Positions 13,142 to 19,338 of a stretch of DNA of 64,000 bases are shown in pieces. Under the pieces are notes generated by a model. It saw only the letters and a list, made by a program, of their open reading frames with translations, was not told the origin of the DNA and searched no databases. The DNA is from Escherichia phage Murica: the sequence record NC_041871.1; one strand, 5' to 3'. Every line of letters begins with the position of its first letter. The stretch's first letter is position 1. A program made the position numbers and the translations under genes.

Positions 13142-15478
13142 TTACCAAAGGTCGGTAGACATGAAGTTGATATCTTTATTGTTCTCCCACTCAAGTTTTG
13201 CATCAAATATTTTGTTAAACTCACCCTCATCTATTGAAATCGTGATTTTCCCATCACTGATCTCTAAAGGTAGCATTTCCATAGTTCTTAACTGAGAAGC
13301 AAAACCAGGGCCACCCGGCAACGGAAGAGTCCCGCCAGGCAAGGTGTCCAAAGGATTAACAAACCCGTTACCTCCCGATATGATATCTTTGCGAATCATA
13401 TCGCTGATAGTATCCAGCTGCTGATTTCTTTCACTTAGTGGGTTGTAACGGTCATTAAATAATTCCCCGGCGCTTAGTATTGTACCGATAATGCCCAGCT
13501 TACCGAGCAGACCAACTTTGCCACCAGGTGTCTTGAGGCCACCTCCACCTTTTCCTGCCGGAGCTCCACCACCAGATCCTTCTGTAGTAGCGGCACCTGC
13601 TGCTCCAGCTGCACCCCTTAGAGAGTTAAGGAATTTAAAGGTTTTTACAAGCATAGATGCCATGACAAAACCTTTTGTTAGGGCGTTGACGACCAGCATG
13701 ATGGCAGCAGCAAACCCTGCCCATTTAGCATAGCTAAAGGTGTCATGAAGCTCTTCAGAATATTCCTTCGTCTTAGCTGTTATGAACCCCCATTTAATCC
13801 CCCATTCAAGGAAAAACATGCGGATCTTGACTATAGTGTTGTTTAGTTCACCAACTACCCAGTTAAGGCCTCTCACAAACCCGCTAACAAAATCACCAGA
13901 GGCATCCCACACAAATTGCAGAGTCTCGCCCGTGCGGATCAGTGTATAATAGAACTCTGTTAGTTCGTCAGACCAACGGGTGAACAGTTTCTGACGAGTC
14001 AGTTCGATGAAGGTTTTCAGTCTGTTTTCTGCCAGCACGTTAGACTTCTGCATTCTTTCATAACCAGCTGCAGATGCCTCGTTCATGTACTTAGCCACAT
14101 ACTTCATGATCTTGGCTGTTTTAACCTCACCTTTCTTCATCATGTCCATGAACTGATCCATGGAGAGTTCAGAAAGACCAAAAGCCTCTTTGGTGGCCTT
14201 GATAAAAGGTTCGTATGCACCAGGCAATGCTTCGGCAAGTTGTTGCTTCAGTTCTTCGGACATTACTTGTCCTTTCCCAAGCATCTGTTGGATTGCCATG
14301 ATACCACGCTGGTATTTTACCTCATCGGCACCATAAGCAGCAGCATACTGGGAGTATGCAGAGAACAGCTCATGAACCTCCTGATTTGTCATCTGGTTTT
14401 TGGCGTTTACCGACATCTGGGCGTAACCTTGAAGACCAGATTTGAGATCAAAACCAAGACGCATAGCCTCTTGCTGGACAAACGCAACCTCACTGTTGGC
14501 TTTGTTTGGATCTCCAGTAACAGCAGTAAGAGCAGCACTTGCCCCCTCCATCATGTGACCGGATCTGTTAACCGCAGCAAATCCAGAAAAAGCTGTATAC
14601 GCAGCTGTTGCATTAATAACAGATCTACGTAAGTCTCTCATGGCATCGCCTAGTGTAAGCGTTTGGCTGGTGGCGCTTTTAAACCCAGACTGCAGCGCTG
14701 ACAGGTGGGCGTTAAAGGTTGACTTCTTCATCTCCCCGCGAGCAAACCTGGACTCTAACTCTGAGTATCCTGGCAAGCTTCCACGGAATCCGGCCCCATA
14801 CTTGGCAGAAAGTCTTATCGCGGAGTTGTAGAGGTGGGTTCTCCTTGCCTCACGATCCGACATAAGCCTATTATCCATACCAGCTTTACTGTCTCTTCTT
14901 AGCTGTCTATGATAACGATTCATAGCGGCTGTCTGAGCTTTCACAAGGTTAGGGTCGGAAGCCACACCACCCATATTAGGGTTACCGGGGATATATTTGA
15001 AAGATTTGGCATTAGCCAAAACTCTTGCCTTAGGTGCCTTATAACCACCGTAAGACACTGGTGCAGATTTGGCAGCCTTTTTGGCCTCTTTAGCTTGCTG
15101 CTGGTAGAACTTACGCATCCTAGCCATTTCTGGATTTTTAGCGGTAAGATTACCTACAGCTTGTTTACGTCTCGCATTCTCCCTACGTTCTATTGCAGCC
15201 CTTACTGCAGCCTCTTTCTTGGCCTGTGCTACGCTCTCTCTGTGCAGTTTAGCATTTGCCTGAGATTGCTGTCTGGCAACCCTCTGCATTGTCTGCTGGG
15301 TTTTAACAGCTACCGCCTGCCATCTACTCATGGGGTTGGCTGAGTTAAAATCCTCGCCCAGTTTCCTGAACTCCCTCCCAATACTGCGAATTTTCTCTAC
15401 AGCTTTTTTGTAGGAGGAGTTCTCTATCTCAAAGCCAATCTTGTTGACTGTTGTGGCAACTATTTTGTTTGTAGCCAT
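13142..15478 (-). CDS. tail tape measure protein
   Basis: 778 aa, alpha-helical/charged N-terminal part, Gly-rich hydrophobic segment, preceded by chaperone genes; GAGGA RBS. Confidence 0.8.
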   Translation of the reverse strand: MATNKIVATTVNKIGFEIENSSYKKAVEKIRSIGREFRKLGEDFNSANPMSRWQAVAVKTQQTMQRVARQQSQANAKLHRESVAQAKKEAAVRAAIERRENARRKQAVGNLTAKNPEMARMRKFYQQQAKEAKKAAKSAPVSYGGYKAPKARVLANAKSFKYIPGNPNMGGVASDPNLVKAQTAAMNRYHRQLRRDSKAGMDNRLMSDREARRTHLYNSAIRLSAKYGAGFRGSLPGYSELESRFARGEMKKSTFNAHLSALQSGFKSATSQTLTLGDAMRDLRRSVINATAAYTAFSGFAAVNRSGHMMEGASAALTAVTGDPNKANSEVAFVQQEAMRLGFDLKSGLQGYAQMSVNAKNQMTNQEVHELFSAYSQYAAAYGADEVKYQRGIMAIQQMLGKGQVMSEELKQQLAEALPGAYEPFIKATKEAFGLSELSMDQFMDMMKKGEVKTAKIMKYVAKYMNEASAAGYERMQKSNVLAENRLKTFIELTRQKLFTRWSDELTEFYYTLIRTGETLQFVWDASGDFVSGFVRGLNWVVGELNNTIVKIRMFFLEWGIKWGFITAKTKEYSEELHDTFSYAKWAGFAAAIMLVVNALTKGFVMASMLVKTFKFLNSLRGAAGAAGAATTEGSGGGAPAGKGGGGLKTPGGKVGLLGKLGIIGTILSAGELFNDRYNPLSERNQQLDTISDMIRKDIISGGNGFVNPLDTLPGGTLPLPGGPGFASQLRTMEMLPLEISDGKITISIDEGEFNKIFDAKLEWENNKDINFMSTDLW

Positions 15479-15487
15479 GGTTTCCTC

Positions 15488-15529
15488 ATAATAAAAAGGG
15501 CCAGATCCCAGAAAAGGAATCCGGCCCTT
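15488..15529 (-). terminator. terminator-like hairpin between chaperone and tape measure genes
   Basis: imperfect GC-rich inverted repeat followed on the minus strand by TTTTTATTAT. Confidence 0.4.
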
Positions 15530-15532
15530 AGA

Positions 15533-15907
15533 TTATCCTCTCCTGCGCTTAGCTTTCGCAGCAGCTGCGGCAGCCTTCTGCTCCCGCTCCATTTCCCTGT
15601 TTTGGACGGTATCTAGGAATTCTTCGATATCAAGATACTCACAGAGCTTCAGGAAATACGCCATATCTGCAAGATTTAGCGATTCAAAATTTTCCCCTTT
15701 GAAATTCTTGAGCACCCTACACCAAAGAAAGTCGAACCAGTTGAGTGAACTGTTCTTGGCTGCCCACTCACTGGCCCTCACAACAACCTTGCTTATTCCT
15801 GCTCTTCCGGAGTCTGATCCAGGTTGTTCACCTGCTGAATCATACCCATCTGCTGTAACATCTCCAGAAGGCTTCCTAAACCGTCTTGTGTGAAAAAACA
15901 GCCGTAG
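15533..15907 (-). CDS. -1 frame extension of the tail assembly chaperone (putative frameshift product C-terminal part)
   Basis: the frame of ORF 15533..15781 is open upstream to 15907 and is the -1 frame relative to the chaperone ORF. Confidence 0.4.
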   Translation of the reverse strand, partial: LRLFFHTRRFRKPSGDVTADGYDSAGEQPGSDSGRAGISKVVVRASEWAAKNSSLNWFDFLWCRVLKNFKGENFESLNLADMAYFLKLCEYLDIEEFLDTVQNREMEREQKAAAAAAKAKRRRG

Positions 15908-16266
15908 TTAACCTCCAGAACCTTACCTGCCAGCTTAATCATCTCCAGCAGATGCCCTGCAAACACAACATCTGGGTTAAGCTTATCCACACCATCTACG
16001 GTAATATCTTCGAACAAGATTTTAAATAACTCTTCAATAGAGCTATCATCAAGTTCTTGGAACAGGTAAGCCAGAGCAGTAGGAAGGACCTCTGCCATAT
16101 TCTGACCACCAGAGATAATAGATCCACCGATAGCACCTAGCGGGACAGCCACAATCTTACCGATTTTAGGCATGTTTTTCATTGCTTTCATCGGTCCCCA
16201 GTGGGTGATCACAAAGTTGTGCCCTGCTAAATCAATCTCTGTTGTAGGTCTAAAGTTTATAGCCAT
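15793..16266 (-). CDS. tail assembly chaperone
   Basis: 157-aa acidic protein immediately upstream of the tape measure gene; AAGGATG RBS. Confidence 0.6.
   Translation of the reverse strand: MAINFRPTTEIDLAGHNFVITHWGPMKAMKNMPKIGKIVAVPLGAIGGSIISGGQNMAEVLPTALAYLFQELDDSSIEELFKILFEDITVDGVDKLNPDVVFAGHLLEMIKLAGKVLEVNYGCFFTQDGLGSLLEMLQQMGMIQQVNNLDQTPEEQE
15892..15898 (-). other. candidate -1 programmed ribosomal frameshift slippery heptamer T_TTT_TTC
   Basis: heptamer in the 0 frame of the chaperone ORF (codons C-F-F-T); the -1 frame stays open to 15533. Confidence 0.45.
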
Positions 16267-16293
16267 TTTATAGCATCCTTATTAGTCATGTTG

Positions 16294-16337
16294 TGCACCA
16301 TATTTGTGTATTTTACCATGATTATGGTGCATTGTCA
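16294..16337 (-). promoter_or_regulatory. minus-strand promoter (TTGACA-17-TAAAAT) overlapped by a 9-bp inverted repeat TGCACCATA/TATGGTGCA
   Basis: -35 at 16332-16337 and -10 at 16309-16314 on the minus strand; inverted repeat arms at 16294-16302 and 16323-16331. Confidence 0.5.
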
Positions 16338-16377
16338 ATTTAACCTTTCAAGCAATTCAAGAACGTGTGTCAAAACC

Positions 16378-16411
16378 ATAAAAGCAAAAAGCCCCACCCG
16401 AAGGTGAGGCT
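16378..16411 (-). terminator. rho-independent terminator after the tail tube/sheath genes
   Basis: AGCCTCACC-TTCG-GGTGGGGCT hairpin followed by TTTTTGCTTT on the minus strand. Confidence 0.6.
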
Positions 16412-16428
16412 TATGCTAAAGTGTGCCC

Positions 16429-16902
16429 TTAGATAATACCTGCAAGACCTGCGAGGCCAGTAAGAGCACCAGTGATGTTATCACGGTTGAGCCATGCATC
16501 CAGAATACCGATATCCCAGTCCAGCTGACCTACTTCGGTTCCGTAAGTCAGGTCAGGCTGTTTCTGGATCCAACCAATTGTGGAAATACCAGGACCCTGG
16601 CTACCTTCCAGCAGAACTGGGAAGAATACCAGACCAGTAATCGATGCCTGTTTCTGCCAGTCAGAAAGGTAAGCGTTCCATACAGAAGTGTTCTGCAAAG
16701 ATACAGTCATAACACCAGATTGGTTACGAGACAGGGCCGCAGACATTTCGCCATCCACACCAACGTGAGGGTAGATGTTGTCTTCGTTTCTTGAAACAAC
16801 GATCTTGGTGTCAGCAGCGAAGCCAGTGACACGCTGCTGCATCAGGTACAGTTTGACCTTTTTAGGGTCATACGCATAAGGAGTTAAAATTTGAGTTTCC
16901 AT
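16429..16902 (-). CDS. putative tail tube protein
   Basis: 157-aa ORF immediately after the major tail protein gene; AAGGAAG RBS. Confidence 0.45.
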   Translation of the reverse strand: METQILTPYAYDPKKVKLYLMQQRVTGFAADTKIVVSRNEDNIYPHVGVDGEMSAALSRNQSGVMTVSLQNTSVWNAYLSDWQKQASITGLVFFPVLLEGSQGPGISTIGWIQKQPDLTYGTEVGQLDWDIGILDAWLNRDNITGALTGLAGLAGII

Positions 16903-16912
16903 CTAGTCTTCC

Positions 16913-18289
16913 TTATTCAGTCATTGCAACAGCATTGGTGGATTTAGAACCAACTTTGTCCAGAAGAACGTTGATCCGGATACGAACGAAGTGCAGGGCG
17001 TTGTTATACACCAGTTCTACTTTCACACCTTCCAGAACACGAGCAGCCAACTGATTGGTTGGGATTTCTGCACGTTTAGGAACTGTGATGATCGGGTCGT
17101 AGAATACATTATTGTCTTCGTCGAAACCTGTCAGGATCGCACCATTCTTAATGCCAGTGTTGATTGGGTTGTTCATCAGGACAGACTTGATAACCGGAAG
17201 ATCATCATCAGACATCTTCATGCTTAAACCCATGTTGGAGCGACGATGCATGTACCCAAACATAGATTCTTCAGATCTGAACTTGATCCAGTGTGCAAAA
17301 CGAATAGCGTCTGCATACTGACCTGAAGCACACTTACCTTCCCAGAAAGCGCCAACACCGTTAATCATTCTGTAGAAGTTAACGTGGTTTTCCCAAATAG
17401 CCATACGCTGAGTTAAAGTCAGAGACGGTGCAATCACACCTGGCATCTGTTTTAAGTGCAAGCTGTCGCCGTAAGACGGATCGTTGGATGCCATAGCACC
17501 TATGATACCACCCTCCGGGAAGTCCTTATCTGCACGAGGATCGTACATGCCGACACTGTCATATTGTGCAGCTTTCAGTTTGGTGGCGATGTTATTATCT
17601 TTACCAGTCACATCTTCTGCAGTAGAGTAGACATGCAGCTTGTAGTTAGCCTGAGCCCACTTAGCACATGCTTCAATGTCGGTGTGGTCTTCATGGCACA
17701 GGAAGTACCAATTGTCACGCTCAGCATTGATCTTATCAACTACTGTAGAAGGTTTTTCAGCATTGGCGATATTTTTGATTGTATAGTTACCAGTATGGTA
17801 ACCAACAGTACAGTCACCAGTGATGGTGATAACACCATCAGCAGCCTCTACAGTGATATCGTCCAAGTTATCATCTGCTTCGATTTTAGTCTTCATTGAC
17901 TCTGCAATCTGAGTTGCAGCTGTTCCACCAGAGATAGGGACTATCAAAGAGGTATTGTAGCTACCTTTTGCAATAGTCATTACGACATCGGTATCAGCTG
18001 CGGCAGCAATACCTTTAAAATCTACAGTGGTCTTTTCTTTGGCCTGTCTGCCGATCATAACGTATTGTGGAGGGAATACACCACCAAAAGCTTTTGCTGC
18101 AAACTCATACGCTGCAGAGCCTTGTGCGAAACCATCTTCCACCATCTGATCCAGCTCTGCATATACGCGAGCTCGCTCAGTAAAGTTGTTGTGGATAGCG
18201 ATGAACAGGGGAGTTTCGAAACCTACAGTGTCAATAGGCTGGGTTCCGAGGTTAACTGTAACATCTACCACTTTATCTAAATATGGCAT
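16913..18289 (-). CDS. major tail protein (sheath-like structural protein)
   Basis: 458-aa ORF with a strong RBS, between head and tube/chaperone genes; by recollection resembles phage sheath-like structural proteins. Confidence 0.5.
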   Translation of the reverse strand: MPYLDKVVDVTVNLGTQPIDTVGFETPLFIAIHNNFTERARVYAELDQMVEDGFAQGSAAYEFAAKAFGGVFPPQYVMIGRQAKEKTTVDFKGIAAAADTDVVMTIAKGSYNTSLIVPISGGTAATQIAESMKTKIEADDNLDDITVEAADGVITITGDCTVGYHTGNYTIKNIANAEKPSTVVDKINAERDNWYFLCHEDHTDIEACAKWAQANYKLHVYSTAEDVTGKDNNIATKLKAAQYDSVGMYDPRADKDFPEGGIIGAMASNDPSYGDSLHLKQMPGVIAPSLTLTQRMAIWENHVNFYRMINGVGAFWEGKCASGQYADAIRFAHWIKFRSEESMFGYMHRRSNMGLSMKMSDDDLPVIKSVLMNNPINTGIKNGAILTGFDEDNNVFYDPIITVPKRAEIPTNQLAARVLEGVKVELVYNNALHFVRIRINVLLDKVGSKSTNAVAMTE

Positions 18290-18329
18290 TTGTTTCCTCT
18301 TAATATCTGTGCACGGATATCAAACACGC

Positions 18330-18346
18330 AGTGTAATCATTACACT
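18330..18346 (-). promoter_or_regulatory. perfect palindrome AGTGTAAT-C-ATTACACT upstream of the major tail gene
   Basis: 8-bp arms around a single centre base, between a TATAAT-like element (minus strand, 18352-18357) and the RBS. Confidence 0.4.
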
Positions 18347-18361
18347 ACACAATTATAACGA

Positions 18362-18913
18362 TTACTGACCACTGTCTGTAACCGCTTTACCAGAATTGGG
18401 TGAAGGGAAGTGTGTGGTTATTTCAGCCTTAATTCCCTGAAGATCCTCAAAAGCCCCAATGTCTGTTTCAACAAACCTTACGTTAAATGTCAGCATCACA
18501 GTGGCTCTATTTTCATACGTCTGCTTATTCAACGGCACTCTTTGAGGTGAGATTGTTGAATTGTTAGAGTAGGCAAAGCACGATCCCAGAGGGAAATACT
18601 TGTCATAAAACATTGGAAGGTTTATTGCTTGCAATACTCTGCTAAGTGCAGCATATGCTCTGCCACGATAAGCTGTTAGCAGATAGGTAACAGTGTAGCT
18701 GTGGGTGACGTAAGCATTACCCTCCGCATCTTGAAACTCATTATCTTCCCAAGTGGTGGGATTGATCGCCAAGGTTTGTAAGAGTACAAACTCACCTTCC
18801 GGCTTCGGTATGGTAGAGCTTTCTGCCAGAACTACAGTTCTTCCTGTGGCAACCTTGACAAGCTTAGCAATGGTTGTTTCAAGATCAGAAAAAACTTTTT
18901 CGAAAGCTTCCAT
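18362..18913 (-). CDS. hypothetical head-tail joining/neck protein
   Basis: 183-aa ORF with AAGGAG RBS. Confidence 0.4.
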   Translation of the reverse strand: MEAFEKVFSDLETTIAKLVKVATGRTVVLAESSTIPKPEGEFVLLQTLAINPTTWEDNEFQDAEGNAYVTHSYTVTYLLTAYRGRAYAALSRVLQAINLPMFYDKYFPLGSCFAYSNNSTISPQRVPLNKQTYENRATVMLTFNVRFVETDIGAFEDLQGIKAEITTHFPSPNSGKAVTDSGQ

Positions 18914-19338
18914 CAGTTTTCTCCTTCAGGCTCTTCTACCACAAAAAATCTATATCTCCCACCACCAGAGGTAACATATGCATCGCATTTTAAAACAGTA
19001 AACCATTTCAAGTCACCACGGATGTCAGGCAGCTGAATTTGGTCAGCCATTGCATATGTTCCTTCGTCCGGACTATACAACTTGGTTGAGGAGTAAACTG
19101 TAAAAGCCTCGTACTGTCTGTCACCTTCAGGGTTTATTTGAGAGGAGTAATCTTTAGCTGCCCTTCCTGTCAACGGCTGCACAACACACTCTAAGACATC
19201 AAACTCTTCATACTCAAGTTCTAACCCCTCGTTGGCAAAAGGGCCACCAACTGTTTTGTTATACACTCTGTGGCGACCTTTGAATGTTTTACGAGGTATT
19301 AGTCTGTTCTTTCCTATCAGCTTATAACCTGCTGCCAC
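18913..19338 (-). CDS. hypothetical head-tail joining protein
   Basis: 141-aa ORF, GTG start preceded by AAGGGGG. Confidence 0.4.
   Translation of the reverse strand: MAAGYKLIGKNRLIPRKTFKGRHRVYNKTVGGPFANEGLELEYEEFDVLECVVQPLTGRAAKDYSSQINPEGDRQYEAFTVYSSTKLYSPDEGTYAMADQIQLPDIRGDLKWFTVLKCDAYVTSGGGRYRFFVVEEPEGEN

Follow-up and report, generated by a model that had tools for sequence, protein, structure and literature searches.

The predicted promoter P051 upstream of the tail assembly chaperone gene of rV5-like phages and the inverted repeat that overlaps it

The functional element upstream of the tail assembly chaperone gene of rV5-like phages is most likely the promoter already described in rV5 as P051, and the 9-bp inverted repeat that overlaps this promoter is probably incidental. 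We studied the repeat in a 64,000-nucleotide stretch of phage DNA, hereafter the window, in which TGCACCATA at 16294-16302 is followed after 20 bp by its reverse complement TATGGTGCA at 16323-16331, the two arms being 100% complementary in a repeat search. P051, a promoter of the host sigma-70 type, would restart transcription for the chaperone gene after the strong terminator that closes the sheath/tube unit. On this reading, the first bases of the transcript happen to be complementary to the middle of the promoter spacer, a part that RNA polymerase does not read.

A preliminary description of this DNA had taken the repeat, together with a 17-bp palindrome upstream of the sheath gene, for binding sites of regulators of late structural transcription. 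Its coordinates, the repeat pair and the palindrome all proved exact on recheck, and the arms do bracket the -10 element of a minus-strand TTGACA-17-TAAAAT promoter. A role of the repeat as a regulator's binding site is not supported, with six uncompensated alleles in one arm and the other arm fixed. Phages of the rV5 type are widely used for biocontrol of E. coli O157. To our knowledge, they encode no RNA polymerase of their own, and no regulator of their late genes is known. An operator at this promoter, if true, would be the first handle on late-gene timing in these phages; the evidence points in the opposite direction, so that the practical value is modest.

The promoter and its setting among the tail genes

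From 15500 to 18600, the window shares 99.9% identity with Escherichia phages ime, CarlMeissner, and nimi, and 122 phage records match this part, nearly all of them rV5-like Vequintavirus. Judged by these matches, the window is from an rV5-like Vequintavirus. Eighteen GenBank records (MG0656xx) titled 'Campylobacter phage', several of them UNVERIFIED, are 98-100% identical to rV5-like phages of E. coli in this region, and their 'Campylobacter' host label looks doubtful.

All genes flanking the repeat are on the minus strand, based on gene calls, Pfam and the annotation of relatives. In the direction of transcription, these are the genes for the neck-terminator protein (18362-18913) and the sheath (16913-18289), the tail tube gene of the upstream transcription unit (16429-16902; Pfam KPP10_Orf10, tail tube in annotated relatives), the tail assembly chaperone gene (15793-16266; Pfam PF21822 Phage_TAC_15, E 3e-23), and then an 82-codon ORF (15533-15781) and the tape-measure gene (13142-15478). 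Inside the chaperone gene there is a canonical -1 slippery heptamer, T_TTT_TTC, at 15898-15892 on the minus strand, and a -1 frame with 119 open codons runs into the ORF at 15533-15781 and ends at 15533. Tail assembly chaperones usually have a programmed frameshift of the G/GT type, and this heptamer is its predicted site here; in most related records the two frames are entered as two unrelated ORFs. A strong intrinsic terminator, t050, lies at 15496-15529 between the chaperone ORFs and the tape-measure gene, with 14 pairs and -24 kcal/mol in the rV5 paper (Kropinski 2013). No predicted promoter follows t050, so expression of the tape-measure gene must depend on read-through.

The preliminary description had assigned the promoter to a chaperone/tape-measure operon. 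A predicted promoter does stand directly upstream of the chaperone gene, with a core that is identical in 116 of 116 genomes, and it is already known in rV5 as P51; the tape-measure gene lies further downstream. Its -35 hexamer, TTGACA, is at 16333-16338 (Kropinski 2013 Table S4; regulatory feature in DQ832317), and its extended -10, TGGTAAAAT, is at 16310-16318, with the TG at 16318-16317 and TAAAAT at 16315-16310. Read on the minus strand, the order is TTGACA (16338-16333), A, TGCACCATA (16331-16323), ATCATGG, TAAAAT (16315-16310), ACACAAA, TATGGTGCA (16302-16294), CAACATGACTAATAAGGATGCTATAAA, and the ATG (16266). The spacer arm of the repeat (16323-16331) thus covers about -28 to -20, and the transcribed arm (16294-16302) covers about +2 to +10, just past the start site, which we infer to be near 16303-16305. 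The Shine-Dalgarno AAGGA (16280-16276) and the ATG (16266-16264) of the chaperone gene, together spanning 16264-16280, are identical in all 116 genomes.

In a promoter scan, P051 was the top sigma-70 match in 12 kb, at 11/12 with a 17-nt spacer and a TG extended -10, and this -10 also fits TggTAaAAtA, a motif that has been reported ahead of the late genes of rV5. The promoter lies between the chaperone gene and t052, the intrinsic terminator after the tube gene (16389-16412, minus strand), for which our scan gives 10 pairs, 6 GC, and a U tract. This terminator is annotated in phage Alma and has -18.3 kcal/mol in Kropinski 2013 Table S4. The same table (Kropinski et al. 2013, Virol J 10:76) has the P051 sequence twice, once as sigma-70 promoter P051 and once as one of eight 'putative late promoters' that share TggTAaAAtA, and in DQ832317, the GenBank record of rV5, the promoter is feature P51. 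The elements are identical: the 46-nt P051 entry and the 37-nt late-promoter entry, TGCACCATAATCATGGTAAAATACACAAATATGGTGC, match the window at 16294-16348 base for base. A promoter is also annotated at the same place in phage Gotham. Both promoter and terminator are therefore already known as predictions, given in Kropinski 2013 without mapped RNA ends, and a word search of that paper for 'inverted repeat' and 'palindrom' found no mention of the repeat. No mapped transcription starts or transcriptome for Vequintavirus turned up in the literature we searched, and P051 is a predicted promoter. We infer its activity in vivo; it is strongly conserved and probably a real promoter.

P051 belongs to a wider set of candidates. 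The TGGTAAAATA motif is enriched in the window, with 20 matches at one mismatch or fewer against 6 expected. The late region has at least seven candidate promoters with a common TTGnnn-17-TGnTAnAAT arrangement that includes the TGnTAnAAT element, and those other than P051 lack the repeat arms. Around the -10 of one late-region promoter, rV5 P056 (19816-19852), we noted a 6-bp inverted repeat, ATGTAT...ATACAT, which is short and A+T-rich. In Certrevirus, sigma-70-like promoters have been placed in the early and middle regions, with none among the structural genes (PMC7344957).

The repeat, its natural variation and what it could bind or form

Inverted repeats of this kind are not rare in the window. 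Counting those whose arms match perfectly over 9 bp or more and whose spacer does not exceed 40, we found 25, against 9.9 +/- 3.1 in dinucleotide shuffles, so that roughly 40% of them are chance occurrences, and the overall enrichment comes largely from terminators. At one repeat per ~2.6 kb, and with at least seven candidate promoters in the late region, a repeat that falls on a promoter is unsurprising. The excess of ~2.5-fold over shuffles counts against the repeat being incidental, as this one could belong to the functional excess. The 9-mer half-site is not enriched in the window (20 matches at one mismatch or fewer vs 16.7 expected). The preliminary description had proposed a search for the same palindromes elsewhere in the genome; with one mismatch per arm allowed, the dyad has no second copy across the window and the 75 kb of the ~138 kb rV5 genome that lie beyond it, and the 17-bp palindrome does not recur in the ~138 kb either. 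Rfam gave no family match in 15000-19000 at E up to 1. We also considered a GTGCAC core shared by the chaperone and sheath 5'UTRs and rejected it as coincidence, with 22 copies in the window against ~16 expected, two of them intergenic.

We partitioned the region with three 60-nt queries against GenBank genomes. The query with the ATG, 5'UTR, transcribed arm and -10 (16262-16321) is identical in 116/116. The query that adds the spacer arm and the -35 (16286-16345) is identical in 105/116 and differs in 11/116. Upstream of the -35 (16340-16399), 32 of the 116 genomes differ, and the variable spacer between terminator and promoter is at 16340-16388. The repeat is perfect in most sequenced genomes only because these are 95-100% identical. 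We read 7 of the 11 differing GenBank genomes, 3 IMG/VR contigs, and 4 metagenome contigs, the last fetched by a pattern in which both arms were given as N. Apart from one 1-nt insertion in L013, the differences between -35 and ATG in the variants read are all at 16324-16327, within the spacer arm.

The spacer arm (16323-16331) has six variant alleles: TGCACTATA in JEP1 and HMD-6, TGCACCGTA in typing phage 4, SYGMH1, ECP2303, and phiWec191, TGCATTATA in ECP26, TGCATCATA in L014, TGCACCACA in L013, and TGCACAATA in L038. None is matched by a change in the transcribed arm, which is constant in the 116 GenBank genomes and in the metagenome and IMG/VR loci that were fetched without fixing the arms. 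The -35 TTGACA is invariant in every variant read. As expected of a sigma-70 promoter, the contact positions are conserved and the mid-spacer is free, with the variation at -24 to -21. Read from these alignments, the pattern is that of a working promoter with a freely drifting mid-spacer, unlike that of a two-armed site. Across more than 120 genomes, the variation is confined to four adjacent spacer positions, which is tighter than uniform neutrality across the spacer predicts. This focus, ~7 mutational events in 4 of ~12 unconstrained spacer positions, counts against the incidental reading.

If the repeat were a DNA operator, a dimeric phage or host protein on both arms would block RNA polymerase at P051, for example in early silencing. 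The perfect 9-bp dyad covers spacer and start site in ~90% of sequenced genomes, which is a classic repressor position, and repression would be natural for a sigma-70 promoter that looks constitutive and precedes a late gene; that a consensus sigma-70 promoter in this place would plausibly need early silencing also weighs against an incidental repeat. Nevertheless, we consider an operator quite improbable. One half-site has six uncompensated natural alleles in otherwise invariant surroundings, the dyad is unique in the ~138 kb genome, and the other late promoters are without the arms. The arm centres, 16298 and 16327, are 29 bp or about 2.8 helical turns apart, which puts the half-sites on different faces of the helix and is far for a simple dimer, and the arrangement is absent from sister genera with the same structural genes. 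Of the features of an operator, the two inverted half-sites are present; conservation or co-variation of the half-sites, spacing on one face, and recurrence at co-regulated promoters were not found. An operator is not supported beyond position and symmetry. The half-sites TGCACCA/TGGTGCA do resemble those of NtrC (NRI), whose site is the 17-bp dyad TGCACCA-N3-TGGTGCA. We rejected an NtrC dimer site, since the letters of the half-sites fit but the 7-mers are 24 bp apart and would need to be 3 apart.

The repeat could alternatively act in RNA. Transcripts that read through t052 would fold via both arms and hide the chaperone Shine-Dalgarno, and RNA started at P051 would have a free ribosome-binding site. 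In the predicted structure, the hairpin would nucleate a larger fold in which the Shine-Dalgarno pairs with an upstream pyrimidine-rich segment, CGUUCUUG (anti-Shine-Dalgarno CGTTCTTG). The -10 and the putative start are in the loop, so only read-through RNA would be able to form the stem. With predicted energies of -13.1 kcal/mol (core) and -16.5 kcal/mol (extended), the fold is more stable than shuffled sequence (z about -3.4, and -3.45 extended), and the 5'UTR initiated at P051 has no notable structure (z +0.39). This stability, together with T4-like arm geometry around the -10 and start, counts against the repeat being incidental. In a partition function for the reference sequence, the Shine-Dalgarno has an unpaired probability of 0.12 in the full read-through RNA vs 0.73 in the P051-initiated RNA, and complementing the 5' arm lifts it to 0.77. 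It stays at 0.13 with all six natural arm alleles in the window background. Equal sequestration was seen in only 4-5% of shuffled upstream segments, although this figure is from one of several post hoc tests. A layout of this type is documented for T4 e, soc, I-TevI, and segB and for Aeh1 mobE (PMC2988022).

Several observations stand against an RNA switch. The Shine-Dalgarno and AUG are outside the 9-bp stem itself, and the spacer is most variable where the predicted anti-Shine-Dalgarno segment lies. The predicted sequestration is lost in several natural variants, with unpaired probabilities for the Shine-Dalgarno of 0.54 in SYGMH1, 0.78 in L013, 0.46 in L015, 0.31 in typing phage 4, and 0.70 in endonuclease-carrying genomes. 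There are no compensatory double changes between the arms among the variants read. Four of the six alleles still pair through G-U, which counts against an incidental repeat, but ~2/3 is the proportion expected for random transitions, and we therefore rejected G-U compatibility as a sign of RNA pairing; in one allele, a C-to-A change abolishes the pair. Read-through RNA may be scarce, given the strong terminator ahead of this region, and the flanking units are both late structural genes, with no obvious purpose for such control. On balance, a read-through fold that hides the Shine-Dalgarno is the main rival to an incidental repeat, conceivable though unlikely. It is likewise unlikely that a phage with no relation to T4 has, with this repeat as its core, an RNA switch of the T4 kind that would uncouple chaperone/tape-measure output from the very high transcription of the sheath and tube genes, and a T4-like RNA role in general is possible but weak. 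The natural spacer-arm alleles make this idea cheap to examine.

The remodelled spacer and the leader of the sheath gene

We compared the spacer between the tube and chaperone genes with that of other Vequintavirinae: Seunavirus (PVP-SE1, GEC_vB_MG, FENT2, LNA4-like), Mydovirus (KpS8, NDO71), Certrevirus (CR8, PcCB7V), Henunavirus (pEp_SNUABM_01), TH18, and W70 (spacers aligned from L003, L005-L011, L016-L025, L032, and L033). These keep the same tube and chaperone genes, with 71-81 nt between them. In every other genus examined, the spacer lacks t052, the TTGACA/TGGTAAAAT promoter, and the repeat. Absence from homologous regions of related phages is part of what the preliminary description had named as telling against it, and the repeat is indeed missing from this spacer in Seunavirus, Mydovirus, Certrevirus, Henunavirus, and W70-like phages. 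The spacer of the other genera has its own structures, a hairpin GCCACA-N4-TGTGGC and a small hairpin with the Shine-Dalgarno AGGAG in the loop. Three base pairs of these hairpins are kept through compensatory double changes, which indicates that selected pairing is detectable in this subfamily where it is present.

In three Vequintavirus genomes, JEP1 (L012, 4048-5670), HMD-6 (L026), and A147 (L044), an ORF of 1.2-1.6 kb sits precisely between t052 and P051, and in JEP1 its stop codon is 1-3 nt upstream of the P051 -35. The JEP1 protein matches PHROG 559 'HNH endonuclease' at E 8.5e-112 and also PHROG 3339 'homing endonuclease'; it has no sequence match in the PDB and only a weak zinc-finger match in Pfam. 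In genomes without the ORF, including the window, the ~22 nt at 16340-16361 resemble the last codons of the endonuclease ORF. This remnant suggests that the gene was lost from an endonuclease-bearing ancestor, which would make loss rather than gain the direction of change. The tube-chaperone spacer of Vequintavirus is remodelled relative to that of its sister genera, and the block of terminator, endonuclease, and promoter is probably a genus-specific remodelling around a homing-endonuclease insertion. The layout of terminator plus promoter may have arisen with that insertion, and P051 would then drive the chaperone genes anew, as has been described for promoters at T4 seg and mob insertions (PMC2988022).

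The polymorphic patch in the spacer arm could then be the recognition or cleavage site of the endonuclease, or an autoregulatory operator like that of I-TevI, with the alleles as cleavage-resistant variants. The endonuclease gene ends close upstream of the P051 -35 in JEP1, HMD-6, and A147, the variation is unusually focal (six alleles within 4 bp), and there is a precedent in I-TevI, which binds an operator that overlaps a late promoter and resembles the homing site (PMC2988022). However, allele and endonuclease do not go together: A147 has both the gene and a perfect repeat, which argues against a homing or immunity site, JEP1 and HMD-6 have TGCACTATA, and the other alleles are in genomes without the gene. 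We rejected a tie between allele and endonuclease on the strength of A147. P051 is downstream of the endonuclease gene and is not that gene's own promoter, and a free mid-spacer is a simpler account of the variation in the patch. We regard an endonuclease site here as very improbable.

The 17-bp palindrome, AGTGTAATCATTACACT, is at 18330-18346, 15 nt after the stop of the neck-terminator gene and 40 nt before the sheath ATG. It lies within a minus-strand hairpin at 18325-18351 with 12 pairs, 3 GC, and the tail TTTGATAT, flanked by the neck-terminator stop at 18362 and the sheath start at 18289; in our scan, this hairpin is A+U- and G-U-rich with the tail UUUGAUAU. Alone, the palindrome has a predicted fold of -10.2 kcal/mol (z -2.25). 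In context, the hairpin competes with an alternative fold that involves the stop-codon region, and the stability of the 94-nt leader is not unusual (z -0.8). It is not among the rV5 terminators listed in Kropinski 2013. Of 115 genomes, 114 share an identical 66-nt intergenic stretch, and the sole variant is outside the palindrome. At the equivalent place, other genera have a different hairpin, AGCAC...GTGCT, and Mydovirus has none. Tight palindromes (8-bp arms, spacer of at most 4) number 14 in the window against 4.5 +/- 2.1 expected, a ~3-fold excess. The most economical reading of the palindrome is as an intercistronic RNA hairpin in a conserved 5'UTR, where it may act as a weak terminator or in RNA processing or stability; there is no sign of a protein-binding role. 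A TATAAT just upstream of the palindrome was rejected as a promoter, with no usable -35 and TATAGT in phiWec191. There is also a 24-bp near-palindrome, TTGATATCCGTGCACAGATATTAA, at 18300-18323, immediately 5' of the sheath Shine-Dalgarno, which is a second potential hairpin, and the sheath 5'UTR that contains it is identical in 114 of 115 genomes.

Comparison with known promoters, operators and T4 elements

P051 resembles the extended -10 sigma-70 promoters of E. coli in its TTGACA, 17-nt spacer, TGn, and TAAAAT, followed by a 5'UTR with a Shine-Dalgarno, and its conservation follows their known contact positions. It differs from them in its setting, before a late structural gene of a lytic phage. 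The repeat is like lac O1 and the lambda OR/OL operators in that a perfect dyad lies over the spacer and start. Unlike those operators, its half-sites are 29 bp apart, one of them is polymorphic, and the dyad occurs once in the genome and has no known cognate protein.

Two further comparisons are with T4. In that phage, promoters for downstream genes sit at or in free-standing homing-endonuclease insertions, for example at segG/gene 32 and with other seg and mob genes (PMC2988022). In JEP1, HMD-6, and A147, an HNH-type gene likewise lies between the terminator and P051. In contrast to the T4 insertions, most Vequintavirus genomes, the window included, are without the endonuclease gene and have only ~22 nt that resemble its 3' end. 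The T4 late genes regulated by hairpins have a late promoter inside an RNA hairpin that hides the ribosome-binding site on longer transcripts (PMC2988022). As in T4 e, soc, I-TevI, and segB and in Aeh1 mobE, the 5' arm of our repeat is upstream of the internal start, and RNA initiated at the promoter would be without that arm. The P051 region differs in that its stem excludes the Shine-Dalgarno and AUG and that the predicted long-range pairing of the Shine-Dalgarno is not conserved among natural variants. The promoters also differ, P051 being sigma-70-like and the T4 genes using the late promoter TATAAATA.
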